A DNA stretch of 64,000 nucleotides from Escherichia coli (lineage in GTDB: Bacteria; Pseudomonadota; Gammaproteobacteria; Enterobacterales; Enterobacteriaceae), in NCBI RefSeq assembly GCF_044324875.1, contig NZ_CP172185.1, one strand, 5' to 3'. Position 1 is the stretch's first letter. The number at the start of each line of letters is the position of its first letter. Positions 59 through 33,208 of this stretch are shown one piece after another. The position numbers and the translations under genes were made by a program. The notes under the pieces were generated by a model. That model was not told the DNA's origin. It worked only from the letters and a program-made list of their open reading frames with translations, and did no database searches.

Positions 59-730
59 TTAGCCTCTGACGATTTTAAGCGCCCATGCGCCACTCATAAT
101 GACCAGCAGCACCAGACACATACCAAAAGCCAGCATACAAGCCTGAGCCATATTCATAAAATGCCATGGTGGTAGCAGATACCAGCCTTCAGATTGCTGA
201 TACATTTCCACAAACCACTGTTGCGTGCTGCTCAGTGTGACGCCATCAGGAACGATTGGGGCGTCATAGCCGCAATCCCCGGTAGGCTTGAACCAATTTG
301 GTGCCCACTGTGCCAGTGGCAGGTTAAAGGGAAAAGTTGGATCGGTAGAGCAACCCTGTACGCCAAACAGTGAATCGGGATCCGGATTATGTACTGCATG
401 GTGGATATCGTTCAGTTTGAGCGAAAACTTCAGTCCCAAAATGCTGCCGTAAAATGCCATCACGCAGCCAATTAGCTTTAGGATGATGTTCTTTGGGTTG
501 ATCGCTGCAACCAATCCTCCAATAACCATCACAAACATGGCGTAGCGAATGTATACACATTGCTCACAGGGTGCCATGTAGAGATAGATCTGGAAGAAAG
601 AGTGCGCCAGGATAATTAACGCGCCCATCGCAATGGCCATTAACAACCACAAAAAACGTTGTTCTTGCCATCTTACCAGCGTATCCACCGGTGAAGTGCG
701 AAGGTCTTTCCACATTCCCTTAATACCCAT
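59..730 (-). CDS. dsbI: DsbB-like disulfide oxidoreductase DsbI (membrane protein)
   Basis: 223-aa ORF with multiple hydrophobic segments and paired cysteines (CEQC); last gene after assT and dsbL. Family assignment from recall. Confidence 0.8.
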
Positions 731-744
731 AGCCTGTTTCCCTG

Positions 745-1413
745 TTATTTGCTTGCTAACTCGCGGATAAGGTCTGCCATTGAGTCAATAGATTTAATAC
801 TCTTGGTGTAGATCAGGTATTTACCATTGACGACATACGCCGGAACGCCCTGGATTTTTGCAACTTCATAAGAGGCTTTCCATTTTTCCAGTGTTTCTTG
901 AACCGCTGGTTCTTTCAGTGCCGCTTCAAAATCCGCCTGACTCATACCTGCGGCATCCAGACCGGTTTTGATAAAAGCAGCCGGATCTTTACCATCAGAC
1001 CAGCGTTCTTTTTTGTCATGATAAGCCGCGTAATAAGCAAACTTGGCTTTCTTAAACTGAGAGTTAGCATCAAATAAGGAAATGCCTGCTGCTTTATCTT
1101 TATTGATCAAGACCGCAAAGACTTCGCTTGCTTGTTTGCCGTATTCACCTTTTGTTTCCAGATGGAATGGAGTAAAAGCAACGATATCTTTCACTTTTTC
1201 CGATACCGGACCGGTAACCGCTTTGTCGTACTTGTAACAGAACGGGCAGGCGTAGCTAAATACCTTAATCAGCGTTTTGTCGGCATTCGGAATAGGTTTT
1301 TCCAGAACCATGTAATCCGTGCCTTCGGTAAATGCAGAAGCGGTAAATGAAACAGCCAAAGCTGCGGTAAGCAGTATGGTTTTAAATAGTGATGAGATCC
1401 CTAATTTCGACAT
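745..1413 (-). CDS. dsbL: Periplasmic thiol:disulfide oxidoreductase DsbL (DsbA-like)
   Basis: 222-aa ORF with N-terminal signal peptide and CPFC thioredoxin-type active site ([10 protein letters not shown]); sits between assT and dsbI. Confidence 0.8.
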
Positions 1414-1430
1414 TTTTATTCCCTTCTTAA

Positions 1431-3227
1431 TTATTTGAACATCTGTTGTGGACGGACTAACAGTGCACGATAGTGAGTCTGATTGGGTTTATCTGACAGC
1501 ACGTCGATTTCCACTTTCACTTCTTTGGTTTTGTAATCGATTTCGTTCAACTTACCGACGGTTGGCTGCCCGACATCGAACAAATGAATAGAACCACCGA
1601 AGCCAAACATGGTGTTACGGTCGGCTTGATATTCAATGATGGAGGTAATCGGGCTATAGAAATCGTAGCCACGTTCTTTACCGTATTCCCACACTTGCTG
1701 AACGGTGCCTTTCTTCTCATCAATCTTATATTCCACAAAGCGGGAGTATTTCATGGTTGGTAAGGCAGGTTGTTCCAGATGACGCCCATCGCCATTATCA
1801 AAAATGGTGAGCGTTCCTTTGCTGGAAATCCAGGCGGTATGCTGGGTGTAGGTAAAGTCGAAGTCTGAGTTTTCGCACAGGCCATTTTCGTTACAGGTAA
1901 TTGGCTTCCCGTTAGCATCAACCGGTTTCAGCAGCTTGCTGGCCAGCGGTTTTTCCCAACCTTTAGAGGGCGCAAGGATCCATTTCACTTGCTTATCACG
2001 ACCAATTTTCACAACACCCTGGTGGCGAGAGGAGAGGATGATTGAGTCATCTTTTGCGTCATAGGCGATTGAGTTAACGTGCGCCCAGTTACGACCTGGC
2101 CCTACACCCAGCGCGTCGCCGAACGGTGTATCTGGTTCCAGTTTTGCCTGTTGTCCTGCATGGGCAAGGTCAACGTTAACGCAAACTGCACCTGCATCCA
2201 GCGCGCCGAGCAGTGCATCGCGTTTCGGATCGAGGATCTTGGTCAGATCCCATACATCGACAACGCGACCAGATTTATCGACTTCGAGGATATGGTCACG
2301 AATGGTGGTGACGTGTACGCCGTCATCGCGACGGTAATTGCTCTTACCTACGCGCAACAATACTGTGCCATTAGGCGTCTCAATGGACTCATGAGTGGCG
2401 TCAGCAAATCCGCGCGGTAGTTTGTGATCTTCGAGCACCTGCCCCATCATGTCGAACTCGTACCAGTGCTGACCTTGTACAGCGGTAAAGGTGCCGCGTG
2501 GTGTTTCGCGGATACCCATCAGATAACCACGCTTGTTGATATCGCGGTCACGACCATCGTAGAAGGTGTTTTGATCCAACCACCAGCGGTATTCGCCTTC
2601 GGTATCGACGATAAAGGTGAATGGCGCGATATCAAAAGGGAGTGCGCCAGTTGCCGGACCCGCATCAAGGATACCGGCATTTTTATCTTTCTCACCATGC
2701 CAGTGGAGATCGGAACCTTGGGCGGTAAAGGTGTGGGTATTAACCAGATAGAGGCGATCTTCAAAACCCGGTGCGACTTTAATAACTTTGGTCTGTTGTA
2801 AATCGGAGATAGAGCGGTTATCCATGTAATTATTGACGATGGCCGAAGTGTGCACCACATAATCATCTTTCATGACCTTGCCGTTTTCTTTCCACTCAAC
2901 GGTCACTTTGTTAGCAAATTTCTGATAAAGACCAAAAATCGGTACACCATCATAAGTTTTTAGTGATTCCTGACCCACGGGATAGCTGATTTCTACGCCT
3001 TTTTCGCCCTTCCCATGGACGGTAACTTTGACATCAGAAATGACATGGCTATCTAAGTCAACCAAAGCGGTCAGTGGTGCATTGCCGTAGGGATCGACAA
3101 TGACCGCACCCAGTTGCCCGGCAGGTGGTGCGGGTTTAAAACCTGCTGCCATCACCCCCGGTGCTGACAAACCCAGAGTTATCGCCACAGCTCCGGCTAC
3201 CAGAGTTTTTCTATATTTATCAAACAT
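1431..3227 (-). CDS. assT: Periplasmic arylsulfate sulfotransferase AssT
   Basis: 598-aa ORF with signal peptide (MFDKYRKTLVAGAVAITLGLSAPGVMAAG); size and sequence fit the AssT family; first gene of an assT-dsbL-dsbI arrangement. Confidence 0.8.
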   Translation of the reverse strand: MFDKYRKTLVAGAVAITLGLSAPGVMAAGFKPAPPAGQLGAVIVDPYGNAPLTALVDLDSHVISDVKVTVHGKGEKGVEISYPVGQESLKTYDGVPIFGLYQKFANKVTVEWKENGKVMKDDYVVHTSAIVNNYMDNRSISDLQQTKVIKVAPGFEDRLYLVNTHTFTAQGSDLHWHGEKDKNAGILDAGPATGALPFDIAPFTFIVDTEGEYRWWLDQNTFYDGRDRDINKRGYLMGIRETPRGTFTAVQGQHWYEFDMMGQVLEDHKLPRGFADATHESIETPNGTVLLRVGKSNYRRDDGVHVTTIRDHILEVDKSGRVVDVWDLTKILDPKRDALLGALDAGAVCVNVDLAHAGQQAKLEPDTPFGDALGVGPGRNWAHVNSIAYDAKDDSIILSSRHQGVVKIGRDKQVKWILAPSKGWEKPLASKLLKPVDANGKPITCNENGLCENSDFDFTYTQHTAWISSKGTLTIFDNGDGRHLEQPALPTMKYSRFVEYKIDEKKGTVQQVWEYGKERGYDFYSPITSIIEYQADRNTMFGFGGSIHLFDVGQPTVGKLNEIDYKTKEVKVEIDVLSDKPNQTHYRALLVRPQQMFK

Positions 3228-3670
3228 GGATATATCTCCTTATATAACGCAAATATATAATAATGATGAATATCGACTGTTGAGGTGGTGCTAATAAATT
3301 TGTTTTGTGAATTAAAATGTATTAATAATAATCGTTATGAATATTTTTACTGGTTTTAGATTTTTTGTATTTCTCTGTAACAAATATTTTCTTTTGGTCG
3401 ATACTAGGTGGGCAATATATCAATAACAATATTCAATATTGTGTAGTGTGATCCCAGCGACATTGTTTTTTAATTATTAAATCTATTTTTGATGCGGTGT
3501 TTGATATAAATAAACTTATAAAACAATAGGTTACAAAGTGATTTTATTGATTAATTTAATTACAGTATCGCTTACATATGACGATTTAATATTAAATTAG
3601 GAATTAATGTTAAATAAAAGTGATGGATGTGATTGATTATATATAGATGGGGGTGATGATTTGCGAAGTA
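3228..3670. promoter_or_regulatory. AT-rich noncoding region upstream of assT (promoter region)
   Basis: About 440 bp with no convincing ORF, visibly far more AT-rich than flanking genes; directly upstream of the assT start. Confidence 0.4.
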
Positions 3671-3700
3671 TAATAAATTGCCCCGGTAAACGGGGCAATA
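3671..3700 (-). terminator. Terminator hairpin downstream of ygiC
   Basis: ttgccccg-gtaaa-cggggcaa stem-loop (about 3678-3698) followed by tttattata on the minus strand, just past the ygiC stop. Confidence 0.5.
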
Positions 3701-3710
3701 TTGAACAGTA

Positions 3711-4871
3711 TTACTCAACAAAAATATGCGGATAAAACCGAGACATATCCTGGGTGATCAACGCACGGTCTTCACGAATGCCAATTCCGGCAGGTTGATC
3801 GTTCACCAGCCAGCTACCAATCAGCATATAGCTGTCGCCGAATTTCGGTAACGGGTGGAATTGCTGAACAATCATCCCTTCTTCGCCATACGGACCTTCC
3901 GCTGCTTCAATGGTTTTGCCGTTCTCAATGATCGACACGTTTGCGCCTTCACGGGAGAAGAGCGGTTTAACCACATATTTTTCCATTTGCGGATGATCAT
4001 CTTCCGCAAAATAAGCGGGCAGCAGGTTCGGGTGATTCGGGAACATCTCCCACAACAGCGGTAGAAGCGCTTTGTTGGAGATAATGCTCTTCCACGCCGG
4101 TTCCAGCCAGCGTACGCCTGCATCCTCCAGCTTGGTGGAGAACATCTCACGCAGCATAAATTCCCACGGATACAGCTTGAACAGGTTAGAAATCACCTGA
4201 TCTTGTAAATCCGTGAACTGACCTTTTTCGCCTAAACCGATATCGTCGATGTAGAGGAATTCAGTAGCGATTTCAGCTTCTGTCGCGCAGTCCTGCAAAT
4301 ACTGGATGGTTCCGCGATCTTCCACCGTGTCGCGACAGCAGGTGAGATGCAGCAACTGGAAGCCATACTGTTCACGCAACTCGACAAAGCGATCGATTAG
4401 CTTTTCTTGCAGACTGTTAAACTGGTCGCTGCCTTCCGGCAGGTTACCGGCGTTAAGCTGATCTTCCAGCCAGATCCACTGAAAGAATGCGGCTTCATAC
4501 AGTGACGTTGGCGTATCGGCGTTATTTTCCAGAAGTTTAGGTTCGCCAGTACCATCCCACGCCAGATCAAGACGCGAATAAAGCGATGGCTGGTGAGTCA
4601 GCCATGACTGGCGCACAAAACTCCAGGTGTGTTTTGGAATGCGGAATTTGGTCATCAGCTCATCGCTGGCGATCACTTTTTCAACCACTTTCAGGCACAT
4701 CTGGTGCAGTTCGGCGGTGACTTCTTCCAGCTTTTCAACCTGGGCGAGGGTCAACTTGTAGTAAGCATCTTCACACCAGTACGGTTCGCCGTACATGGTG
4801 TGAAAATTGAAACCGTATTCGTGGGCTTTTTCGCGCCAGTCCGGGCGCTCGGTAATACTGACTCTTTCCAT
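3711..4871 (-). CDS. ygiC: Glutathionylspermidine synthase-like ATP-grasp protein YgiC
   Basis: 386-aa ORF matching E. coli YgiC in length and sequence as recalled; follows ygiB. Confidence 0.85.
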
Positions 4872-4876
4872 CGGTA

Positions 4877-5548
4877 TCAGCCACCCATTGAACGAGAAGA
4901 GGTGCCGGTTGCGCTACGCTGCATAGTGCTTTGTTTGGCAACAGATTCACCAAAACCGCCACGAGTAACGGTGGTGGTGGTTGCCGGTTTTGGTGCCATT
5001 GCCGTCTTCGGTACGGTCATGGTGCGGCCTGGCTGGGCTGCGCCATAGTTTTTACCGGTCGCGTCGGTATATTTACCGTAAGCCGGGCTGGCCGGGTTTT
5101 TCGAGGAGAACAGCGGCTGCTGTGCAAATCCCGCGCCGCCGCCCATCAGACGACCCATCATGTAACCGGCCATCAGCGGCATCCAGAAACTCCCGCTGGA
5201 TTGCTGGGCCTGCGCCTGGTTTTCTGGTGCCATGCCAGCCTGGGCTGGTGCCTGCTGGCACTGACCTTCACCAAATTCAGCAACACAGTCTTCACGGGTG
5301 GCGTATTTCGGCGCAGTACGTTCGGCTTCTTTCAGCGCATTGTTGTACGCGGTGGTACATTCGGCGCTTTTGCCTGGGTTTGCAGCTGAACAGTCGTCAG
5401 CATTTTGATAGAGAGACACTGTTTCATCACTCTTTTCACAGCCAGCCAGCATAAAAACAGTGGCAACCGCGAGAGCGACTGGTGTCAGATGGCGTGCGCT
5501 CCAGTTTTTGCGGAACGATGCGTGGCGTATGGATTTTGTCCGTTTCAT
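4877..5548 (-). CDS. ygiB: DUF1190 lipoprotein YgiB
   Basis: ORF 4877..5581 trimmed to the internal start [12 protein letters not shown] (223 aa); lipobox LAGC; Gly/Met-rich middle region. Confidence 0.8.
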
Positions 5549-5667
5549 TTTTGTCTTCCGGGACCAGTGGTAAATACCCATCAGAATAGAGGATGGCTGG
5601 TCGAAATTGAAGCGAGAAGGGGGAAGAATGCGGCAGATAACCCGTATCTTTACGTTGCCTTACGTTT

Positions 5668-5690
5668 AGACGGGGCCGAAGCCCCGTCGT
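5668..5690 (-). terminator. Stem-loop downstream of tolC
   Basis: gacggggc-cgaa-gccccgtc hairpin just past the tolC stop, followed on the minus strand by an A/T-rich stretch. Confidence 0.45.
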
Positions 5691-5695
5691 AGTCA

Positions 5696-7177
5696 TCAGT
5701 TACGGAAAGGGTTATGACCGTTACTGGTGGTAGTGCGTGCGGATGTTTGCTGAACGACGGGTGCCGGGCTATCAGGCGCATAACCATCAGCAATAGCATT
5801 CTGTTCCGGCGTTTGCGGGGCAACGTTTTCCGGATTAGTGGAAACCGGTTTGCTCAGCGCATTGTTCAGTGCCAGCAGATCCTGCTCGTTCAACGTACCC
5901 AGGGCTGACTTAATATTCAGCTGATTAATCAGGTAGTTATAACGCGCATTCGCCAGCTCTTGCTTGGCGTTGTACAGCGTGGTGGTCGCATCCAACACAT
6001 CAACAATGGTACGCGTACCGACCGAGTAGCCCGCTTCCATCGCATCTAATGAGCTTTGAGCGGAAACTACGGCTTGTTTGTAGGCGTTAATGCTACTGAT
6101 AGAAGCATTAATGTTGTTGAAGGAGGAACGTACGGTTTGCACGACGCTACGATGGGCGCTTTCCAGTTGCTCACTGGCACCAACAAAGTTGTACTGGGCC
6201 TGTTTCACCTGCGAGTTAACCATTCCGCCCTGATAAATCGGCAGCGAGAAGCTCAGGCCAACTTTGTTCTGGCCCATATTGCTATCGTCATACTGGGTAC
6301 CAGCGGCACCTCGGGTTTTCGAACCGCTATATGAGGTGTCAGAAATCCCGGTAGAAGCCGTTAAATCCAGAGTCGGTAAGTGACCATCCTGCGCCTGGCG
6401 AATTTGCTCGCGCGCCAGGTCCTGGCTCAAGCGCGCCTGTAACAACGACAGGTTGCGTTTTTCGGCTTCTTTCAGCAGCGCGTTAACCGGCTGTGGTTTG
6501 TCGGTTTTAAAGTTTTCGACATTCAGCGCCGCCAGTTCCGGATAGTAGTTACCGGTGATCTGGCGCAGCTGCTCTACCGCGTTATCAAGGTTATTACGTG
6601 CGGTCACTTCGTTCGCCAGCACGGTATCGTACTGTGCGCGGGCGTTCTGCACGTCAGTGATCGCTACCAGGCCCACGTTAAAACGTTGGGTGGTTTGATC
6701 TAATTGACGGTAGATCGCTTCTTTTTGCGCCTGTGTATAGGAAAGAACGTCAATAGCATTCAACACGTTGAAATAAGCGGTCGCGGTGTTGAGGATCAAG
6801 GTTTGTTGATCGGTCTGATACGTGACGTCCTGAATCCCAGCTGCTTTTTCCTGCAGCGTTAACGCACGCCATTTCGACATATCAAAAATGGATTGAGTTA
6901 ACTGCAGGGACGCACTGGTCGCGTTAGAGTTGATGCCGTTCGCGTCGCGGTAGCCGTTGCTATAGGTGTAATCTGCACCTAAACCTAGCTGTGGCAGTAA
7001 TGGACTGCGCGCTTCATTAATTTTTTCAAAGGCAGCATCACGATCGGCGGCAGACTTACGCAATTCCGGGTTACTAAGGCGTGCTTGCTGATAAACTTGC
7101 ATCAGGTTCTCGGCCTGGCTCAACGAACTGAACCCAGAGAGGCTCAGGCCGATAAGAATGGGGAGCAATTTCTTCAT
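5696..7177 (-). CDS. tolC: Outer membrane efflux channel TolC
   Basis: ORF 5696..7216 trimmed to MKKLLPILIGLSLSGFSSLSQAENLMQVYQQA (493 aa); sequence is TolC along its whole length. Confidence 0.95.
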   Translation of the reverse strand: MKKLLPILIGLSLSGFSSLSQAENLMQVYQQARLSNPELRKSAADRDAAFEKINEARSPLLPQLGLGADYTYSNGYRDANGINSNATSASLQLTQSIFDMSKWRALTLQEKAAGIQDVTYQTDQQTLILNTATAYFNVLNAIDVLSYTQAQKEAIYRQLDQTTQRFNVGLVAITDVQNARAQYDTVLANEVTARNNLDNAVEQLRQITGNYYPELAALNVENFKTDKPQPVNALLKEAEKRNLSLLQARLSQDLAREQIRQAQDGHLPTLDLTASTGISDTSYSGSKTRGAAGTQYDDSNMGQNKVGLSFSLPIYQGGMVNSQVKQAQYNFVGASEQLESAHRSVVQTVRSSFNNINASISSINAYKQAVVSAQSSLDAMEAGYSVGTRTIVDVLDATTTLYNAKQELANARYNYLINQLNIKSALGTLNEQDLLALNNALSKPVSTNPENVAPQTPEQNAIADGYAPDSPAPVVQQTSARTTTSNGHNPFRN

Positions 7178-7381
7178 TTGCATTCCTTGTGGTGAAGCAG
7201 TATTTAGCGCGATCAAACTGTAAAATTATTGCGGATTCTAGCAGAAGCCGCTACCGCAAAAGGTTGGCGTTACGTGCCATAGGGCGTTAATGTGCCTCAA
7301 TTTAACACATGACTGCTCAAACGGCAGTCAAACGTCGCTGAAATTCACATTTAATTCACTATTAGTGCCAGGACATTAACA

Positions 7382-8011
7382 ATGCTTAAGCCAGACAACC
7401 TGCCCGTTACATTTGGCAAAAACGATGTAGAAATTATTGCACGAGAAACACTTTATCGCGGCTTTTTTTCATTAGATCTTTATAGATTTCGTCATCGTCT
7501 ATTCAACGGGCAAATGAGTCATGAGGTACGGCGGGAAATTTTTGAGCGCGGTCACGCCGCAGTCTTGCTACCCTTTGACCCAGTGCGTGATGAAGTTGTG
7601 CTGATTGAGCAGATTCGGATTGCCGCGTACGACACCAGCGAAACCCCCTGGCTACTGGAGATGGTTGCCGGGATGATTGAAGAGGGTGAAAGTGTGGAAG
7701 ATGTTGCCCGTCGCGAAGCGATTGAAGAGGCGGGACTGATAGTCAAACGGACCAAACCGGTGTTAAGTTTCCTGGCAAGCCCGGGGGGCACCAGTGAGCG
7801 TTCGTCAATTATGGTGGGCGAAGTGGACGCCACGACCGCAAGCGGTATTCACGGTCTGGCTGATGAAAACGAAGATATTCGCGTTCATGTGGTAAGCCGG
7901 GAACAGGCATACCAGTGGGTAGAAGAGGGGAAAATCGACAACGCAGCGTCGGTCATCGCTTTGCAATGGCTGCAGCTGCATCATCAAGCGTTAAAAAATG
8001 AGTGGGCATAA
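7382..8011 (+). CDS. nudF: ADP-ribose pyrophosphatase (Nudix hydrolase)
   Basis: 209-aa ORF with Nudix motif ([22 protein letters not shown]); divergent from tolC as in E. coli. Confidence 0.9.
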
Positions 8012-8434
8012 ATGAAGCGTTACACACCTGACTTTCCTGAAATGATGCGCCTGTGCGAGATGAACTTTTCGCAATTGCGCCGTTTGTTGCCGCGCAATGA
8101 CGCACCCGGCGAAACTGTAAGCTATCAGGTGGCAAACGCACAATATCGGCTAACGATTGTGGAATCGACCCGATACACTACCCTGGTGACAATAGAACAG
8201 ACTGCGCCCGCGATCAGTTACTGGAGCCTTCCGTCAATGACGGTGCGTCTGTATCATGACGCGATGGTGGCTGAAGTGTGTTCAAGCCAGCAGATTTTTC
8301 GCTTCAAAGCGCGGTATGATTATCCTAATAAAAAGTTGCATCAACGCGACGAAAAGCATCAAATTAATCAGTTTCTAGCGGACTGGTTGCGATACTGTTT
8401 AGCACATGGAGCGATGGCGATTCCGGTTTACTAG
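8012..8434 (+). CDS. yqiB: DUF1249 protein YqiB
   Basis: 140-aa ORF starting immediately at the nudF stop; conserved position between nudF and cpdA. Confidence 0.8.
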
Positions 8435-8458
8435 CGTCGTGAAACCTAAGGACACCAT

Positions 8459-9286
8459 TTGGAAAGCCTGTTAACCCTTCCTCTGGCTGGTGAGGCCAGA
8501 GTCAGGATTTTACAAATTACCGACACTCACCTGTTTGCGCAAAAGCACGAAGCCCTGTTAGGGGTAAACACCTGGGAAAGCTACCAGGCGGTGCTGGAGG
8601 CGATTCGGCCACACCAGCACGAATTCGACCTGATTGTCGCGACAGGTGATTTAGCGCAGGATCAATCCTCTGCGGCCTATCAGCATTTCGCTGAAGGCAT
8701 CGCAAGTTTTCGTGCGCCCTGCGTCTGGCTGCCGGGCAACCACGATTTCCAGCCCGCGATGTACAGCGCGTTACAGGATGCGGGTATCTCCCCGGCGAAG
8801 CGGGTGTTTATTGGTGAGCAATGGCAAATCCTGTTGCTGGATAGCCAGGTGTTTGGCGTGCCGCACGGTGAGCTGAGCGAGTTTCAGCTTGAGTGGCTGG
8901 AACGTAAACTGGCCGATGCGCCAGAACGCCATACGTTGCTGCTGCTGCATCATCATCCGCTACCTGCGGGTTGTAGTTGGCTTGATCAACACAGCCTGCG
9001 TAACGCGGGCGAACTGGATACCGTGCTGGCGAAGTTTCCGCACGTCAAATACTTGCTGTGCGGTCATATTCATCAGGAGCTGGATCTCGACTGGAACGGT
9101 CGCCGCCTGCTGGCAACGCCGTCGACCTGTGTGCAGTTTAAGCCGCACTGTTCCAACTTTACGCTGGACACCATCGCGCCCGGCTGGCGTACTCTCGAGT
9201 TACATGCTGATGGCACGCTGACCACCGAGGTGCATCGCCTGGCGGACACACGTTTCCAACCTGATACCGCTTCAGAAGGCTACTGA
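8459..9286 (+). CDS. cpdA: 3',5'-cyclic AMP phosphodiesterase CpdA
   Basis: 275-aa ORF with metallophosphoesterase motifs (GDLAQD, GNHD, CGHIH). Confidence 0.9.
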
Positions 9287-9892: not shown

Positions 9893-11788
<1,896 letters not shown>

Positions 11789-11816
11789 TAATCCTCCCGC
11801 CAGAAGAATAAAACAT

Positions 11817-11851
11817 AGCCCGGTATACAAGTGTATACCGGGCTTTTTTGA
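11817..11851. terminator. Bidirectional terminator between parE and the receptor gene
   Basis: agcccggtatac-aagt-gtataccgggct perfect hairpin followed by tttttt; the receptor stop codon (11852-11854) abuts it. Confidence 0.6.
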
Positions 11852-13993
11852 TCAAAATTCCATTTTCACCGTGAATTGCACTTCACGCGGATCGCCAATC
11901 TGATTCCCCAGATTATTTGTGGCGATGGAAGAGGTGTAATACGTTTTATCAAACAGTTTTTTGACGTTTAATTGCAGTGTGACCGGATACTGCAATTTCA
12001 TTTTGTATGCGGCGAAGGCATCGGCAACGAAATAGCCTGGCAGATAATAGTCAGCCCCATTGGTTGCCGAACGACGGCTTACGCCATGTCCACCACCGCC
12101 AAACGTCAGTGTGTTATTGCCTGGCATGTTATGAATGTCATAGGTCAGGAATAGCGAACCGGTATGACGAGGAACATTCGGCAATGGTTTCCCTGCATAA
12201 TCAGGATCTTCCAGAACCTTAGCATCGGTATAGCCGTAGCTGGCAATGATATTAATGTTTTCAGTTAATGCTCCCGCAAGGTCGACTTCTACCCCTCTTG
12301 AACGAACGCGGCCTGCCGTTTTGGCGATGGTTTCATCACCAATACTTTCGGTATACAACACGTTACGTTTATGGATATCAAACAGCGCAATATCTGCGGT
12401 TATACCATCGAACAGCTCGAATTTTGCCCCGACTTCGTAAGCATTAGATGATTCCGGTGGAAGATCTCCGATGTAGCTGGCAATTGACGATTGCGGCATA
12501 AATGTTTGCGAATAATTAGCAAATAAGGATACCGATGGCGTCAGTTTGTAGACTAACCCCAGTTTGGGCGTCCATTGTTCATCGCGGCTGTCAGTATTGA
12601 CATTAAAAGGACGGCCTTTACCCGCATACTGCGTGTAATACTGATAGCGGATCCCGGCGACGGCAATCCAGTTATCGGTCAGATAGAGCGCGTCCTGTGC
12701 ATACGCTGAGTAGCTCTCCTGTTTGATCGTCTGATCGCTGTCCGACGCCGAGACAGTTGTGCATTTGCTGGTATTGCCGTAAACAGGGTTGTAGATATTG
12801 AAATCTTTAGCGTTTTTACAGCGAATCATATCTGTGCGCAGAAGATCATAATATTCATATGACACCCCACCCAGAATCTCATTATAGAACCCAGCAATAT
12901 CAACATTCCCTTGCAGATCCGCACGAGTAGCATGCATACGCTGGGTAGATCCCTGAGTTGCATCAACACGCCGTGTCAGCGTTCCTGTCGTTGCATCATA
13001 CGCGGTAACACGAGCCTGATTATCGCCGTATTTATCCTGGCTGTAGCTGTAATCAAAGCGCGCTGTCCACTGGCTATTGAGATGATATTCTGCGTTGAGT
13101 TGCGCCAGATCGGACTGACCATCTGTAATATTAAACGGTTCGTCAAAACGTATTTTTCGATCAACGTTTACGGGCTGTTTCGTCGTAAGGTCGAAAATCG
13201 TTCCACGATCGAACGGAGTTTTATAATCCCGATGGGAATAGAGCATGGTTACTGTTGCATTATCACCAAACCAGGTGAGTGATGGGGCAATAAATGTACT
13301 GCGCTCTTTACCAAAGTTTCGCCAGTAATCTTCATCCTGCACTTCCCCGGTAAGGCGATACGCCAGTTGAGTGCCTTCAATGGGGCCAGTGATATCAAGT
13401 TGCCCGGTGCCACCACCGAAACTGGAGGACGTGGCTGAGACAGAACCATGGAATGTTTTTTCCGGGCGTTTGGTCACGACGTTAATCAATCCACCAGGAT
13501 CGAGAATGCCATACAGCGTGGAGGCCGGGCCTTTTAGCACTTCCACACGTTCTGTGGCGGCGTTGAAACTGCGAGGAAGTACAGTTCGCAGGCCGTTGGT
13601 CATGATGGAGCCATCCCGGTTAGCACCAAACCCACGACGTACAAAGGCGTCCTGAGTTCCGCCTAATGTATTGGTCTGTACCACGTTACTGACGTTATAA
13701 AGCGCTTCATCCAGCGTCGTTGCATTCTGATTTTCCAGAACCTGATCGCTAACCGTATTGACCACCTGCGGGATATCCAGCATCGGCATATCGGTTAATG
13801 TCGCCGTGGAGGTGCTCAGAGGTTGATAACCATCGGTTGCTTCAGTTGCGGTATTTGCATCTGCTGTAACAGTGATTGTTTCGCCATCTTTGGTCGTTAC
13901 AGAGTCTGTTGCATGAATCATCGGTGCCGCAAAAAGCAGTGAAAAGAGCGCCCGACCTTTGAGTCCTGAGAATGAAGGTGTGAACATAGCCAT
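11852..13993 (-). CDS. TonB-dependent outer membrane siderophore-type receptor
   Basis: 713-aa ORF with signal peptide, TonB-box-like ETITVTA near the N-terminus, plug-domain motifs and a C-terminal aromatic residue (..TVKMEF). Resembles the fit system receptor (tentative). Confidence 0.85.
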   Translation of the reverse strand: MAMFTPSFSGLKGRALFSLLFAAPMIHATDSVTTKDGETITVTADANTATEATDGYQPLSTSTATLTDMPMLDIPQVVNTVSDQVLENQNATTLDEALYNVSNVVQTNTLGGTQDAFVRRGFGANRDGSIMTNGLRTVLPRSFNAATERVEVLKGPASTLYGILDPGGLINVVTKRPEKTFHGSVSATSSSFGGGTGQLDITGPIEGTQLAYRLTGEVQDEDYWRNFGKERSTFIAPSLTWFGDNATVTMLYSHRDYKTPFDRGTIFDLTTKQPVNVDRKIRFDEPFNITDGQSDLAQLNAEYHLNSQWTARFDYSYSQDKYGDNQARVTAYDATTGTLTRRVDATQGSTQRMHATRADLQGNVDIAGFYNEILGGVSYEYYDLLRTDMIRCKNAKDFNIYNPVYGNTSKCTTVSASDSDQTIKQESYSAYAQDALYLTDNWIAVAGIRYQYYTQYAGKGRPFNVNTDSRDEQWTPKLGLVYKLTPSVSLFANYSQTFMPQSSIASYIGDLPPESSNAYEVGAKFELFDGITADIALFDIHKRNVLYTESIGDETIAKTAGRVRSRGVEVDLAGALTENINIIASYGYTDAKVLEDPDYAGKPLPNVPRHTGSLFLTYDIHNMPGNNTLTFGGGGHGVSRRSATNGADYYLPGYFVADAFAAYKMKLQYPVTLQLNVKKLFDKTYYTSSIATNNLGNQIGDPREVQFTVKMEF

Positions 13994-14093
13994 TTAGTCT
14001 GTTATCCCAAAAACTCGCGGATTGTCGCGAGTGAAAATTGTTTCTTATTGCTCACTAAGCACTATCCGTTTGTTATTTCGCCATCGGATATGT

Positions 14094-14114
14094 AATTGAG
14101 AATCATTCAATCAT
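14094..14114. promoter_or_regulatory. Candidate Fur box in the divergent receptor/ABC promoter region
   Basis: aattgagaatcattcaatcat partially matches the Fur consensus GATAATGATAATCATTATC; lies in the AT-rich 13994-14366 intergenic region. Match judged by eye only. Confidence 0.3.
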
Positions 14115-14366
14115 GCGGTAATGTAGTAGTAAATGAGAAATAACAAAAAATTGCTACATGTGTTTTTATGAGAGGTTAATGCAATTCAATTGATGGTAAT
14201 TTATTAATATTTAATGATTTTATTTTTATCTTTAAAAAAATTTCACCTGTTATTTACCTTGTTTTTGTATGGCTTTTAACTTCTTGACTACTACATTTTG
14301 TGGCGTCAAACTCTCAAAGGAGAATGAGTTTTATTTTTGTTTGTCTTTGATTAAGTTGGCGTACAC

Positions 14367-15176
14367 GTGGCACATAACGCAAAAGGGCAGGGGCTGATCC
14401 TCGACAATGTTTCTGCCGGGTATCACAAGAAAATCATTGTTGATGGTGTTTCTTTCTCCGTTCCCACAGAAAAAATGACCGTTCTGGTTGGGGCAAACGG
14501 CTGTGGAAAGTCGACGTTGCTCAGCACCATTGCACGTATCTTGCAACCTATGGGCGGCTCGATATTGCTGGATGGTAAAGCGATTCACGAGCAACCAACG
14601 AAAGCGTTATCCCGTAGACTTGGGATCTTGCCGCAGTCGCCATTATTGCCGGAGGGCTTAACCGTTTATGAACTGGTGTCGCGTGGGCGTTTTCCCTGGC
14701 AGAATTTCATTCGTCAATGGAGCGACGCCGACGAGCAGGCGGTAGAAGAGGCCCTGAAATTAACCGGTACGCAGGAGTTTGCACATTTACCTGTTGAAAA
14801 ACTTTCTGGTGGGCAGCGCCAGCGTTGCTGGATTGCGATGGTGTTGGCGCAAAAGACGCCTTATATCCTACTGGATGAACCCACAACCTGGCTTGATTTA
14901 CGTTATCAGGTTGAAATTCTTGAGTTATTACATGATTTAACGCGTCATCACGGGCGTACAGTCGTCGTGGTGTTGCATGATCTGAATTTTGCCGTCAATT
15001 ATGGTGATACGTTGATATTTTTACGCCAGGGGAAAGTGGTGCGTGTGTTGAATGAGGGGGAGCATTGCACGCCTGAGCTGGTAAAAGCTGTCTTTGACGT
15101 TGATGTTCACGCATCAATAAATCCTCTGACGGGAAAGCCGTTCTTCATGCCGTTTCGTGGTGTAGAAAAAGTATGA
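14367..15176 (+). CDS. Iron-siderophore-type ABC transporter ATP-binding protein
   Basis: 269-aa ORF (GTG start) with Walker A GANGCGKST, signature LSGGQRQR and Walker B ILLDEPTTWLD. Confidence 0.9.
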   Translation: MAHNAKGQGLILDNVSAGYHKKIIVDGVSFSVPTEKMTVLVGANGCGKSTLLSTIARILQPMGGSILLDGKAIHEQPTKALSRRLGILPQSPLLPEGLTVYELVSRGRFPWQNFIRQWSDADEQAVEEALKLTGTQEFAHLPVEKLSGGQRQRCWIAMVLAQKTPYILLDEPTTWLDLRYQVEILELLHDLTRHHGRTVVVVLHDLNFAVNYGDTLIFLRQGKVVRVLNEGEHCTPELVKAVFDVDVHASINPLTGKPFFMPFRGVEKV

Positions 15177-16156
15177 TGCGCACAGGGCTGGTTACTGTAA
15201 TTTTCCTCGCCTTACTGCTGGTGGGATGCGTGGTATATCCAGGGATTGGTGCCCGATTTATTGCACCACAAACGGTGTTGCAGGCATTTCTTCATTTTGA
15301 TCCGCAAAACTTCGATCACAACGTAATTGTAAGACTCCGTTTGCCGCGTTTAGCGGCAGCATTGCTTACCGGTGCTTCTCTTGGAGTTGCTGGTGCTTTG
15401 TTGCAGGCTGTCATTCGTAACCCATTGGGGGAGCCACATATTTTAGGCTTAAATGCCGGAGCCGCTCTTGCTGTCGTTGCTGCCAGTGCGCTTGGGCTGG
15501 CCTTTCCGGTTGGACGCCCACTGCTGGCATCTACGGGCGGCGCGTTATTGTTCCTGTTGATATTGCTGCTTTCCTCCGCAGGGCGTTCAGGGTTAACGCC
15601 AATGAAAGTTACTTTATGCGGCGTGGCGCTATCGGCGTTCGTGTCCTCAATAACGGCTGCAATCCTGATTCTTGACGAACAAACACTGCTGGCGATGCGG
15701 ACATGGCTAGCAGGTGATTTAGCGGGGCAGGATTGGGCGACGCTGGGTACGTCCGCCTGGTTTTCTCTGGGGGGATTTGTGTTAGCCCTTTACCTTGCAC
15801 CCTCCCTTAACATGTTGGCACTGGGCGATCGCATGGCGCAGGGGCTGGGCGTCTCTGTACTCCGCACGCGAACATTCACCCTGCTTGCGATCGCGTTGCT
15901 CTGTGGCGCAGCCGTATCGATTGCTGGCCCCATTGGTTTTGTCGGCCTGCTAGTACCGCAGATTGTCCGGCGTCTGGTATCAGCGGATCTGCGCGTTCTG
16001 CTCCCTCTTTCAGCTTGTGTCGGCGCGCTTTTGTTATTACTGGCAGATATTATTGCCCGGACGCTTTTCACGCCCCATGAGTTAGCGACCGGTGTCATGA
16101 CGGCGTTAGTTGGTGCGCCTGTTTTTGTCATTATGGCGACGAGGATGTTCAAATGA
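15173..16156 (+). CDS. ABC transporter permease (FecCD family)
   Basis: 327-aa polytopic membrane ORF; start overlaps the ATPase stop by 4 nt. Confidence 0.85.
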   Translation: MMRTGLVTVIFLALLLVGCVVYPGIGARFIAPQTVLQAFLHFDPQNFDHNVIVRLRLPRLAAALLTGASLGVAGALLQAVIRNPLGEPHILGLNAGAALAVVAASALGLAFPVGRPLLASTGGALLFLLILLLSSAGRSGLTPMKVTLCGVALSAFVSSITAAILILDEQTLLAMRTWLAGDLAGQDWATLGTSAWFSLGGFVLALYLAPSLNMLALGDRMAQGLGVSVLRTRTFTLLAIALLCGAAVSIAGPIGFVGLLVPQIVRRLVSADLRVLLPLSACVGALLLLLADIIARTLFTPHELATGVMTALVGAPVFVIMATRMFK

Positions 16157-17202
16157 GTCGGATAATGAACGTCGGGCTACGCCCACTACGTGTTGGTAAG
16201 TTTTCGACACTGGTACGCCCTAAAAATCTGGTGTTGCTTGGTGGGTTGTTTCTGTTTGCGGTTGGAATACTGATATTCGGTCTGATGCAGGGTTCTTTCT
16301 CCGTCCCGGCATCGGAAGTAGGACGAGCATTGTTCTCTCCAGAAAACGTAAGCACAGACGCACGTTATATTGTGCAGGATATTCGCTTGCCGAGAGTCAT
16401 CATGGCATTGCTATGCGGGGCCATGTTAGGTATGGCGGGGGCCGCGATGCAATCCATTGCGCGTAACGGCCTTGCCGATCCTGGTTTAATCGGCGTCAAA
16501 GAAGGATGTAGCGTGGCGGTGCTGTGGCTGATTTTCCAGTTTCCAATGCTGGGAATGTTCTGGCGTCCAGTGGCTGGTCTTGCTGGTGGCTTGTTGGTGG
16601 CTTTAATCGTGATTTTTTGTGCGCGCGATATTTCCCGCCCGCGATTTGTTCTGATTGGTATTGGTGTTTCCTGGTTTTTCGCCGCCGGTATCGGTGTATT
16701 TATGACCACTGCAGATGTTCGAGATGTACAAACTGCATTGATGTGGTTATCGGGAAGCCTGCATGCAGCTAACTGGATGTTAGTCGGTATTTCAGCCTGT
16801 TGGATGTTGCCAGCCGCTCTTTTATTGCTGTTCACCGCCAGGGCGGCGGATATCGCTCTGCTTGGTCATCAGGTTGCAACCGGGTTAGGGGTGAATAGTT
16901 CTCGTCTGGCGTTGTTACGTGTCGCCGCACCCATAATCCTGACAGCCGTCTGCGTTTCGTGTGTTGGTAACATCGGTTTTGTCGGATTGATAGCACCCCA
17001 TATATCACGTTTTATTCTACGTGGCGGGCAGACGACATTACTGCTGGGGAGCGCCGTATCGGGGGCGTTGTTAGTCATCCTGGCGGATAGCATTGGTCGT
17101 TTGGCTTTTTTGCCTTTGCAACTGCCTGCCGGAATCATTATTTCATTGATTGGTGGACCATTCTTTTTGCTACTGCTCTGGCAGCGCAGGAACAGTTTTT
17201 AA
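16153..17202 (+). CDS. ABC transporter permease (FecCD family), second subunit
   Basis: 349-aa polytopic membrane ORF overlapping the previous permease stop by 4 nt; paralogous to it. Confidence 0.85.
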   Translation: MSRIMNVGLRPLRVGKFSTLVRPKNLVLLGGLFLFAVGILIFGLMQGSFSVPASEVGRALFSPENVSTDARYIVQDIRLPRVIMALLCGAMLGMAGAAMQSIARNGLADPGLIGVKEGCSVAVLWLIFQFPMLGMFWRPVAGLAGGLLVALIVIFCARDISRPRFVLIGIGVSWFFAAGIGVFMTTADVRDVQTALMWLSGSLHAANWMLVGISACWMLPAALLLLFTARAADIALLGHQVATGLGVNSSRLALLRVAAPIILTAVCVSCVGNIGFVGLIAPHISRFILRGGQTTLLLGSAVSGALLVILADSIGRLAFLPLQLPAGIIISLIGGPFFLLLLWQRRNSF

Positions 17203-17212
17203 TGGGAGTTAT

Positions 17213-18160
17213 ATGCGTTTATTTTTTTCTCTGCTGATACTGTTGTCATTCTTTGCCCGCGCGACAGAACCTGTTCAGGTCTTTACTGATGATTTAGGGC
17301 GCAAAGTCACTGTTCCTGCTCATCCAAAGAGAATTGTCTCTTTACACGATCTTGATATCACTATTCCTCTGATTGAGCTCGGTGTACCTCCTGTCGCCAG
17401 CCACGGGCGAACCCGGCCTGACGGTAGCCATTTCATTCGATCAGGCGCGTTATTGACAGGTGTCGACTTTGATAATTCATCGATCGCTTTTATTGGCACC
17501 GCTGATATTGATATTGAAGCGATTGTGGCGGCAAAACCTGACCTGATCATCACAGAACCGACCCGTAATACGCCCATTGAACAACTGGAAAAAATTGCGC
17601 CCACGGTGAGCATTGATCATCTCAAAGGAGGCGCGCCAGAAATCTACCGCAAGCTGGCAGAACTTACAGGAACGCAGTCGCAGCTGGCGATACTTGAACG
17701 CCGCTATCAGGCACAAATCAATGCGCTGAAGGCGACGCTGGACAGCCAAAAAATAACGGTATCGGTGATTCAGGCAAATCAGGGAAAAATTAATGTGATG
17801 CATAGCTATCATTCGCTGGGGCGGGTATTACGCGATGCTGGTTTTCGCTTTCCGCCGCTGATTGAGAGCATTCCTGAAGGTGGGCGAATGGATGTGAGCG
17901 CAGAGCGTTTACCTGAACTGGATGCCGATTTTGTTTTTGCAACCTGGCGCGGTGACACCGGTGGTAAACCTCAGGATGAGCTGGCAGCAATGGAAAAAGT
18001 CATGCCGGGATGGTGTCAGTTTCTGACGGCCTGTCGTTCCGGGCGCTATGTGCTGATTTCTCGTGAAGAGGCGATTTCTAACTCCTTTGCATCTCTGGGG
18101 CTGATGGCTGCGCAGATACAATCACAAATTGCGGGACGACCTCTACCGGAGGCTAAATGA
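17213..18160 (+). CDS. Periplasmic substrate-binding protein (siderophore/cobalamin-type)
   Basis: ORF 17150..18160 trimmed to MRLFFSLLILLSFFARA, which has a signal peptide and an upstream gggag RBS; class III binding-protein-like sequence. Confidence 0.8.
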   Translation: MRLFFSLLILLSFFARATEPVQVFTDDLGRKVTVPAHPKRIVSLHDLDITIPLIELGVPPVASHGRTRPDGSHFIRSGALLTGVDFDNSSIAFIGTADIDIEAIVAAKPDLIITEPTRNTPIEQLEKIAPTVSIDHLKGGAPEIYRKLAELTGTQSQLAILERRYQAQINALKATLDSQKITVSVIQANQGKINVMHSYHSLGRVLRDAGFRFPPLIESIPEGGRMDVSAERLPELDADFVFATWRGDTGGKPQDELAAMEKVMPGWCQFLTACRSGRYVLISREEAISNSFASLGLMAAQIQSQIAGRPLPEAK

Positions 18161-19044
18161 TCCAGAAAGACAAAACGCGGGTTGATATTTATGGTGAGCG
18201 TTTTCGCACTCGCGCGAGTCAGTTAACGCCTGGGTTAAGAACTGTCGCAAGCTACATTAATGAGCATCGTGAAGTGGTACTCGAGCAAACGGCGATGGAA
18301 ATTGCGGCCACGTTGAACACTTCCGATGCCACAGTTATCAGGGCTATACAGGCTCTGGGGTTTGCCGGGCTGCGTGATCTGAAACGCACTCTGGAACAGT
18401 GGCTTGGTCCAGCCCTTAGTTCCAGCGAAAAGATGTCTACGACGGTGAGTAACTTGACGAGCGATGTTAACACCGCAATCGACTTTGTTCTTGAAGGGCA
18501 TTTGTATACTTGTAATGTCCTGTCAGAGCCTGAAAACCGCCACGCGCTTGCGCAAGCTGTAGCGTTGTTGGTGCAGGCACGGCAAGTCGCTATTTTTGGC
18601 ATTGGCGCTTCGGGTATCCTGGCGGACTATACCGCACGACTATTCAACCGCATAGGTTTGCCTGCCACGGCACTAAACCGTACGGGTATTGGCCTTGCCG
18701 AGCAACTGATCGCGCTTCAACGTGGCGATGTTCTGATCATGATGGCGCAAAAATCTGCGCACCGGGAAGGGCTGACAACGCTTCGTGAGGCGAGGCGGCT
18801 GGGGATCCCTGTTATTTTGCTGACAAACGCGCTGGATTCACGTTTTAGCAAAGACGCCAGTATCGTGATTCATGTTCCGCGCGGGGATGAAAAGGGGAAA
18901 ACGCCACTACATGGTACGGTATTGTTGTGCCTGGAAATGATTGTTTGGTCGGTGGCTTCCGCGATGCCGCAGCGTGCGGTTAAAACCATTAAGCGAATTA
19001 ACGATTTCCATCGGGGTTTGAAAACGGGAAGAAAGAATGGCTAA
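18157..19044 (+). CDS. RpiR/MurR-family transcriptional regulator (HTH plus SIS domain)
   Basis: 295-aa ORF overlapping the binding-protein stop by 4 nt; N-terminal helix-turn-helix region and C-terminal SIS-like Rossmann segment (VAIFGIGASGILADY). Confidence 0.75.
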   Translation: MIQKDKTRVDIYGERFRTRASQLTPGLRTVASYINEHREVVLEQTAMEIAATLNTSDATVIRAIQALGFAGLRDLKRTLEQWLGPALSSSEKMSTTVSNLTSDVNTAIDFVLEGHLYTCNVLSEPENRHALAQAVALLVQARQVAIFGIGASGILADYTARLFNRIGLPATALNRTGIGLAEQLIALQRGDVLIMMAQKSAHREGLTTLREARRLGIPVILLTNALDSRFSKDASIVIHVPRGDEKGKTPLHGTVLLCLEMIVWSVASAMPQRAVKTIKRINDFHRGLKTGRKNG

Positions 19045-19052
19045 TCTGACCT

Positions 19053-19084
19053 GAGGCCGGTAGCAACACCGGCCTCTTTTCAGG
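19053..19084 (+). terminator. Rho-independent terminator after the ABC/regulator operon
   Basis: gaggccgg-tagcaaca-ccggcctc hairpin followed by tttt; lies between the regulator stop and the ygiN stop. Confidence 0.55.
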
Positions 19085-19088
19085 AATG

Positions 19089-19403
19089 TTAAATCCCCGG
19101 TTGCAGAATACGGATATTCATCTCCAGCACGTCGCCTTTTACGGCTTCGCTGTACGCCTTCATGTGCGGGGTTTGCAGATGCGCTTCAAGATGCGCGATG
19201 CTTTCCCACTGCTCAATCATCACGATAGAATCCGGTGCCATAGACTGGAAACTCACGCCAGCAGCGCAATCCACCATTGGCGCATAGCCGTGGCAACCTT
19301 CTTCTTTCAGTACGGTTGGAACGATTTTAGCAAACTGATCCAATACCGCCTGACGGTGATGTTGACCAGGACGAGTACGGATTTCTGCGATTACGGTAAG
19401 CAT
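19089..19403 (-). CDS. ygiN: Quinol monooxygenase YgiN
   Basis: 104-aa ORF; antibiotic-biosynthesis-monooxygenase-like sequence; conserved partner downstream of mdaB. Confidence 0.9.
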   Translation of the reverse strand: MLTVIAEIRTRPGQHHRQAVLDQFAKIVPTVLKEEGCHGYAPMVDCAAGVSFQSMAPDSIVMIEQWESIAHLEAHLQTPHMKAYSEAVKGDVLEMNIRILQPGI

Positions 19404-20015: not shown

Positions 20016-20075
20016 TTTTTAACCTCAAGGTGAGACGTTTGTCGACTATAGTACGTCACAGAGCGGTACGGTGAA

Positions 20076-20118
20076 ATTAGCAAAATGTGCAAAGTCTTTT
20101 GCTAATTTAGCAAAAGTC
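20076..20118. promoter_or_regulatory. Inverted/direct repeat element in the mdaB upstream / qseC downstream spacer
   Basis: attagcaaaa ... ttttgctaat inverted repeat with an additional ttagcaaaagtc copy; may be an mdaB operator and/or qseC terminator. Confidence 0.3.
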
Positions 20119-20124
20119 TTACCC

Positions 20125-33104: not shown

Positions 33105-33208
33105 ACGTTCCTCCTTTATATGAACTCACCGGAGCAGGCTCCGGTGAGGTGTTGTGAACTTAAGTCTGGACGAAATGCCCGAAAACGAAAGTTTGAGGCG
33201 TAAAAAGC

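Follow-up and report, generated by a model that had tools for sequence, protein, structure and literature searches.

The fit system of Escherichia coli comprises a receptor gene, fitA, divergent from the operon fitBCDE-fitR; it was reportedly described and named in 2006 by Ouyang & Isaacson (Infect Immun). Its regulator was characterized in 2008, and a crystal structure of FitE is in the PDB. Here we analyzed a 64-kb stretch of E. coli DNA (contig NZ_CP172185.1; the window), in which the region under study, the 7193 bp at 11852-19044 between parE and ygiN, is this already known fit system. The best overall explanation of the region, and one that we hold with high confidence, is that it encodes a TonB-dependent import system of the ATP-binding cassette (ABC) type for a ferric chelate.

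Two other iron-uptake systems of E. coli invite comparison. Fhu (FhuA, FhuCDB), like Fit, combines a TonB-gated receptor with a FecCD/type II ABC importer under Fur control. The TonB box of FhuA is DTITVTA; the FitA translation has a signal peptide followed by the TonB-box-like ETITVTA, and FhuA is among the nearest solved receptors. Fhu differs in gene order and in its fused FhuB, as opposed to two separate Fit permeases, and Fit has its own repressor. Among the iron-uptake systems of E. coli, Fec (FecIR-FecABCDE) is the other one to have a regulator of its own besides Fur, and FecE and FecC are the nearest NCBIfam models of FitB and FitC. However, FitA has no signaling extension, and Fit has no extracytoplasmic function (ECF) sigma/anti-sigma pair, using instead a cytoplasmic MurR/RpiR repressor. 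That repressor, FitR, shares the HTH_6 + SIS architecture and the repressor role of the sugar-phosphate-responsive regulators MurR, RpiR/AlsR, HexR, and NanR, but its target is a metal-chelate transporter and not sugar catabolism, and its SIS loop differs. The Y. pestis "FitA-D" is a separately named system.

Identity and layout of the locus

The roles of FitA as receptor, FitB as ATPase, FitC and FitD as permeases, FitE as binding protein, and FitR as regulator were defined by Ouyang & Isaacson (Open Microbiol J 2008; PMC2593036), who printed primers for each fit gene and for the promoter. All 18 of these primers find their predicted gene or promoter in the window: 14 are perfect matches, three differ at a single position, and fitR2-F differs at three. 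The window has no site for the control primers, which target fepA, gst, and polA. The quantitative PCR primers for fitA are exact at 13173-13249, as are those for fitB at 14524-14610, fitD at 16857-16916, and fitR at 18214-18347 and 19024-19041, while the fitC primers lie at 15792-15887 with at most one mismatch and the fitE primers at 17760-17831 with one mismatch each. FitE is identical at 295 of 297 residues to the crystallized protein of PDB entries 3BE5/3BE6, the latter of which is named Ec-FitE in PMC10553834. A 2026 comparative genomics study (PMC12928451) lists a region GR22, ygiN..parE, as the fit operon; its size of 7193 bp is that of the interval here, which supports the identification. 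Gene set, gene order, divergent promoter, chromosomal site, and sequence all match the E. coli fit system, from which there is no substantive difference: the window allele is 99.2% identical overall to that of strain MEW, and the sampled E. coli alleles, including those of O55:H7 and Nissle 1917, fall within 97-99%. The original prediction, made from the letters of the window, had noted a resemblance to the fit ferric-siderophore system, and primers, crystal sequence, and literature agree with it. One correction of nomenclature is needed, as the published naming uses FitE for the binding protein and FitB for the ATPase.

The genes and terminators of the region, with flanking genes, are as follows.

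parE: 9896-11788, plus strand; flank of the fit region
Bidirectional terminator hairpin common to parE (plus) and fitA (minus): 11817-11844; 12-bp stem with 7 GC pairs, T-runs on both strands
fitA: 11852-13993, minus strand; TonB-dependent outer-membrane siderophore receptor, 713 amino acids (TIGR01783 match, exact primer match)
fitB: 14367-15176, plus strand; ABC ATPase, GTG start (NCBIfam relatives, primers; RefSeq start identical)
fitC: 15173-16156, plus strand; FecCD-family permease (NCBIfam relatives, RefSeq, primers)
fitD: 16153-17202, plus strand; FecCD-family permease (RefSeq start corresponds to 16165)
fitE: 17213-18160 (longest open reading frame from 17150), plus strand; periplasmic siderophore-binding protein (identity to PDB 3BE5/3BE6)
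fitR: 18157-19044, plus strand; MurR/RpiR-family (HTH_6 + SIS) autorepressor (NCBIfam and PDB relatives, primers)
GC-rich hairpin between fitR and ygiN: 19053-19076; 9-bp stem, GAGGCCGGU-AGCAAC-ACCGGCCUC, then UUUU
ygiN: 19089-19403, minus strand; flank of the fit region

Open reading frames (ORFs) and family assignments agree with the predicted arrangement of a receptor divergent from a five-gene operon of ATPase, two permeases, binding protein, and regulator. The tight packing of the operon also holds: fitB/C, fitC/D (using the longest ORF), and fitE/R overlap by 4 bp; if the RefSeq starts are used, fitC/D and fitD/E are separated by 8-10 bp. The divergent fitA-fitB spacer is 373 bp long, AT-rich (31% GC), and carries two divergent promoters. 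The region does lie between two terminators, as had been proposed. The hairpin at 11817-11844 has folding energies of -23.8 and -22.7 kcal/mol (z scores of -7.2 and -4.9) and ends 7 nucleotides from the fitA stop codon, so the stop codon is next to the parE terminator as predicted; the hairpin at 19053-19076 folds at -23.3 kcal/mol (z = -5.1) and was missed by a consensus terminator scan because it is followed by only four T residues. In K-12, parE and ygiN are directly convergent and 47 bp apart, and the fit genes are absent, in accord with the original prediction.

History of the parE-ygiN interval

The claim of the original prediction that found no support is that of an inserted island. The six genes and their promoter region take up all of the 7.2 kb, and no integrase, transposase, or other mobility gene is present; there is no tRNA in the 64-kb window, and the two borders of the fit interval share no flanking repeat of 7 nucleotides or longer. 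A scan of a genome collection, one genome per species, using exact peptide patterns, yielded 21 loci in five genera: two non-coli Escherichia lineages, many Enterobacter species, Lelliottia, Silvania, and Huaxiibacter. Exact patterns find only close relatives, and the absence of Klebsiella, Salmonella, and Citrobacter from this set is thus uninformative. The fit genes also lie between parE and ygiN in the two non-coli Escherichia lineages, and by tblastn fitA adjoins parE in the same orientation in 14 of the 21 loci. Elsewhere in the set, parE is 1-7 kb beyond fitA in four loci, the sequence ends at or just after fitA in four, and Enterobacter sp. BIGb0383 has no parE within 10 kb of fitA. At the other end, fitR adjoins ygiN-mdaB-qseCB in several Enterobacter and Lelliottia loci; the E. 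kobei order is parE-fitA / fitBCDE-R-(BON/LysM gene)-ygiN-mdaB-qseCB. Enterobacter has many FitA orthologues of ~90% identity.

Nucleotide identity to the window tells a similar story. For other E. coli it is 97-99% across the fit genes and 96-99% across the flanking core genes; for non-coli Escherichia the corresponding ranges are 92-97% and 88-98%, and for other genera 67-79% and 69-87% (with Enterobacter kobei, 68-78% and 69-87%). As judged from these sequences, the divergence of the fit genes parallels that of the flanking core genes at every depth sampled. It is fairly probable that the ancestor shared by Escherichia and the Enterobacter group already carried fit at the parE-ygiN site and that E. 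coli lineages including K-12 lost it by deletion. Ancestral presence followed by loss is the simpler history, because the same site is used in other genera, divergence tracks the flanks, and features of mobility are lacking.

Within E. coli, the site was compared by megablast over 5426 complete genomes, a comparison that the original prediction had suggested for defining the boundaries. The whole fit interval was present in 1870, including Nissle 1917 (B2) and O55:H7, and 3268 have the K-12-type empty junction; ~290 have neither. The alleles differ over the entire parE-ygiN spacer, as far as the stop codon of parE. A deletion scar was looked for in the 47-bp K-12 spacer and none was seen; the hairpin in that spacer is unrelated to the fit and E47 hairpins, and there is thus no scar that would either support or refute a deletion.

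The E47 allele is a third occupant of the site. In E. coli E47 (NZ_CP121151.1), an unrelated 8.3-kb cassette at 705-9035 takes the place equivalent to window 11789-19088, and it encodes a DUF2608 protein, a porin, a phytase-like esterase, a carbohydrate (sugar) kinase, a SIS protein, an ADP-ribosylglycohydrolase, a GntR regulator, and an MFS transporter. Its ygiN-side hairpin is homologous to the fit-allele hairpin at 19053-19076 and not to that of K-12.

It is rather unlikely that this lineage acquired fit by horizontal transfer, as a genomic island that inserted between parE and ygiN. The presence/absence polymorphism just described would fit such an event, as would the allele-specific spacer, the acceptance of an unrelated cassette at the same site, and the base composition of fitA (48% GC) and of the fitA-fitB spacer, both of which are lower in GC than parE (54%). 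However, the locus sits at the same place, and is oriented the same way, in non-coli Escherichia, Enterobacter, Lelliottia, Silvania, and Huaxiibacter, and its divergence parallels that of its flanks at each phylogenetic depth sampled; it also lacks an integrase, transposase, tRNA, or flanking repeats, and the neighborhood in the window, with no ygiZ between mdaB and qseC, looks ancestral, matching Enterobacter and not K-12. Ancestral presence followed by loss does have points against it. The GC content at third codon positions (GC3) is 0.46-0.53 in the fit genes, compared to 0.60-0.64 in parE, yqiA, and cpdA; the site is exchangeable, as the E47 cassette shows; the comparison left out Salmonella, Citrobacter, Klebsiella, E. 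albertii, and E. fergusonii; and an ancient transfer may have occurred, with later exchange of alleles by way of the flanks.

The mdaB-qseC gap is a second small variable spot beside the fit site. In the window it spans 109 bp (20016-20124) and lacks ygiZ, which is likewise missing in O55:H7 and Enterobacter; ygiZ is present in K-12, and Nissle 1917 has hcp (type VI secretion), a hypothetical gene, and ygiZ.

Transport components and substrate

FitA scores 363.5 bits on TIGR01783, the model for TonB-dependent siderophore receptors (cut-off 223.5), and PF07715 (Plug) and PF00593 (barrel) are present on its 99%-identical cluster representative. It falls by far below the equivalog cut-offs of FhuA, FhuE, FoxA, FecA, Fiu, CirA, FepA, IreA, BtuB, and the heme receptors: in bits, 225 against 803 for FhuA, 158 against 666 for FhuE, 100 against 1100 for FecA, 92.6 against 316.85 for a heme receptor model, and 40.8 against 599.7 for the B12 model. 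Since all of these scores are far below their cut-offs, specificity cannot be transferred from the known receptors, and by these models FitA is orthologous to none of the receptors whose specificity is known. FhuE, FhuA, and FecA were the receptors with which a comparison had been proposed; none of their family models comes near its cut-off, and it is the fitA primers that match instead. The nearest solved receptors are FoxA, FetA, FhuA, and FptA (E ~1e-36 to 1e-48). At 713 amino acids, FitA has no N-terminal signaling domain (its alignment to FoxA begins at FoxA residue 94-146), which fits the absence of a FecIR-type pair.

FitBCDE form a type II (FecCD/BtuCD-like) set of two FecCD permeases, one ATPase, and one Peripla_BP_2 protein according to NCBIfam, and the Pfam families FecCD, ABC_tran, and Peripla_BP_2 are found on the Enterobacter orthologues. 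The best NCBIfam matches of FitB are ATPases of the FecE, FepC, and FhuC type, all below equivalog cut-offs. After FitE itself, the nearest solved binding proteins are the siderophore binders YfiY, FhuD, FepB, and SirA. By family membership, FitA would act as an outer-membrane gated barrel with a TonB box, taking up an iron-siderophore complex with energy from TonB-ExbBD. FitE, a periplasmic binding protein reported to have one bridging helix, would then shuttle the ferric chelate across the periplasm to the inner membrane, where the FitB ATPase would drive its passage through the FitC/FitD permease pair into the cytoplasm.

The import of something other than a ferric siderophore, for instance a Ni/Co/Zn metallophore, heme, or a corrinoid, is very unlikely. 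Systems of the FecCD/Peripla_BP_2 type do carry heme and B12 too, chains labeled CntO (the pseudopaline receptor) are among the top solved relatives of FitA, PMC12928451 relates fit to Fe2+, Co2+, and Cd2+ uptake, and the literature reports no tested siderophore as a substrate. Nevertheless, FitA passes the siderophore-receptor model and fails those for the non-siderophore heme and B12 classes, which bears out the earlier view of the region as an iron/siderophore-type TonB plus ABC uptake locus; the siderophore-binding relatives of FitE point the same way, as does the strong control by Fur and iron that has been published. A point against a ferric-siderophore importer is that the word siderophore rests on family membership and Fur control.

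The literature describes the Fit substrate as unidentified and not enterobactin, and none of the papers looked at gives it a name. No siderophore biosynthesis genes accompany the fit locus, and the substrate is most likely a siderophore that other organisms produce. It could be an anionic one, a hint that comes from the structural study of FitE by Shi et al. (Proteins 2009), which is said to describe an arginine-lined pocket suggesting an anionic siderophore.

Distant relatives of FitE were searched for among 50%-identity protein representatives, giving 102 matches at E ≤ 1e-30, of which three contexts were inspected. All three have the order ATPase-permease-permease-binding protein, and one has a SIS regulator; none has a biosynthesis cluster beside it, and thus no substrate can be inferred from them. 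Another of the three, a distant fit-like locus in a metagenome-assembled genome (MAG; L028/L029, 10001-14798), has four tandem Peripla_BP_2 genes after the ATPase and two permeases, followed by a gene for a siderophore-interacting (FAD-binding) reductase.

Regulation and present role

Fur-Fe2+ and FitR are published as two independent repressors of the divergent fit promoters: FitR represses both promoters and binds the intergenic fragment in gel shifts, fitA is 23-fold derepressed in a fur mutant, and the promoters are induced by dipyridyl, i.e., by iron deprivation (PMC2593036). To place candidate sites, we used a conservation footprint of the 21 aligned fit loci from five genera. The spacer is AT-rich and otherwise unalignable, but four blocks are invariant or nearly so: 14089-14135, 14156-14160, 14281-14297, and 14319-14343. 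The features of the spacer and the fitA leader are as follows.

Conserved fitA leader hairpin: 14013-14032, minus strand; ends 19 nucleotides before the ATG, then UUUUU
Fur-box-like site 1, GTAATTGAGAATCATTCAA: 14092-14110; overlaps the inferred fitA -10; 12/19 match to the Fur consensus
ACTACTACAT box, fitA side, candidate FitR operator half: 14121-14130, minus strand; adjoins the -35-like TTTACT
ACTACTACAT box, fitB side: 14287-14296, plus strand; overlaps the -35-like TTGACT (14284-14289)
Fur-box-like site 2, GAGAATGAGTTTTATTTTT: 14320-14338; downstream of the inferred fitB promoter; 12-13/19 match

The Fur-like boxes GAGAATCATTC and GAGAATGAGTTTTAT lie within conserved blocks, each just downstream of a -35/-10-like pair. 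The block of site 1 is invariant in 20 of the 21 loci (one has a 1-nucleotide gap), across the five genera, and that of site 2 is nearly invariant across genera. Exact copies of ACTACTACAT occur only twice in the 64-kb window, as an inverted pair with 93% complementarity; the fitA-side box is invariant across genera, and on the fitB side CTTGACTACTACA is invariant in all 21 loci. We propose the inverted boxes as candidate FitR operators. Fur would then act at the two GAGAAT-containing boxes (14092-14110 and 14320-14338), FitR would recognize the inverted pair of ACTACTACAT boxes, which lie over the two -35 regions, and a small molecule, probably not a classical phosphosugar, would relieve repression by FitR.

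Several points weigh against these placements. A score of 12/19 is not significant alone, as there are 133 such sites in 64 kb, and no site was found that matches the Fur consensus with three or fewer mismatches. Because the score is weak, the candidate Fur boxes stand on their invariance across genera together with the published dependence on Fur. The FitR operator assignment is drawn only from conservation, and the same bases form the -35 regions.

A predicted hairpin lies 19-23 nucleotides before the fitA ATG in all 21 loci, formed by 21 different sequences with folding free energies (dG) of -6 to -12 kcal/mol; the leader segment in the window folds with z = -3.2. Per-sequence folding was needed to see it: the arms cannot be aligned by sequence, and RNAalifold on a MAFFT alignment of the leader therefore did not detect the hairpin. 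Its role may be that of an attenuator, a stabilizer, or a site for a small RNA or Hfq.

In the MurR/RpiR family, a serine-rich SIS loop, SxSGx(S/T), binds phosphate. All NCBIfam and PDB relatives of FitR belong to this family, with HTH_6 and SIS domains, and the solved relatives have SxSGx(S/T)K(D/E), as in SQSGRSKD (8K3B) and SSSGSTKE (4IVN). FitR departs from the canonical serine-rich loop, having AQKSAHRE at residues ~197-204, and this sequence is kept in all fit loci compared except for a single K-to-N change in one Enterobacter MAG. The non-canonical loop suggests that the effector is probably not a classical phosphosugar. FitR is thus a member of the MurR/RpiR family by fold, probably with a different kind of effector.

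Two neighborhoods elsewhere in the window deserve mention. At 59-3227 (minus strand) there are a DsbI gene, a DsbA-like gene, and an unassigned 598-amino acid ORF; we take this group to be the assT-dsbL-dsbI cluster of uropathogenic E. coli. Upstream of it, at 3228-3710, is a 480-bp AT-rich region with the best local matches to the Fur consensus, 14/19 at 3256-3274 and 3321-3339. The only Rfam match in the window is the ES173 small RNA (33143-33206, minus strand; 99 bits, gathering score 90), which sits between dkgA and a yqhD-type alcohol dehydrogenase gene.

Does the locus do anything at present? That it is a decaying, functionally silent remnant without a present role is extremely improbable. 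It has been lost from ~60% of complete E. coli genomes, and fit mutants in the 2006 paper reportedly had no defect in growth or virulence. However, all six ORFs are intact here and in five genera, and the promoter elements are invariant. FitA is 90% identical to its Enterobacter counterpart in amino acids against 78% in nucleotides, and protein identity so well above nucleotide identity is indicative of purifying selection. Furthermore, according to the literature, FitA has been detected among the outer-membrane proteins that adherent-invasive E. coli (AIEC) expresses, and K. pneumoniae has an iron-induced gene that is annotated as fitA.

To what is known of fit, the present analysis makes small additions: the candidate Fur boxes, the ACTACTACAT pair, the leader hairpin, and the FitR loop. 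Taken jointly, they allow a reading that we hold tentatively, considering it possible but doubtful, in which FitR would be the first MurR/RpiR-type repressor to sense a ligand related to an iron chelate, through its cationic AQKSAHRE loop, while acting at the ACTACTACAT boxes. Fit would then be both substrate-inducible and iron-repressed, serving a foreign, possibly anionic siderophore, and would be an ancestral trait of Enterobacteriaceae shed by K-12-type lineages. A substrate of that kind, if true, would explain the failure of the standard E. coli siderophores as substrates. The locus is of some practical relevance, as fitA is in use as a marker of B2 and adherent-invasive E. coli, and TonB receptors are entry routes for siderophore-conjugated antibiotics. 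The candidate operator, the Fur boxes, and the leader hairpin make the regulatory questions on fit directly testable.

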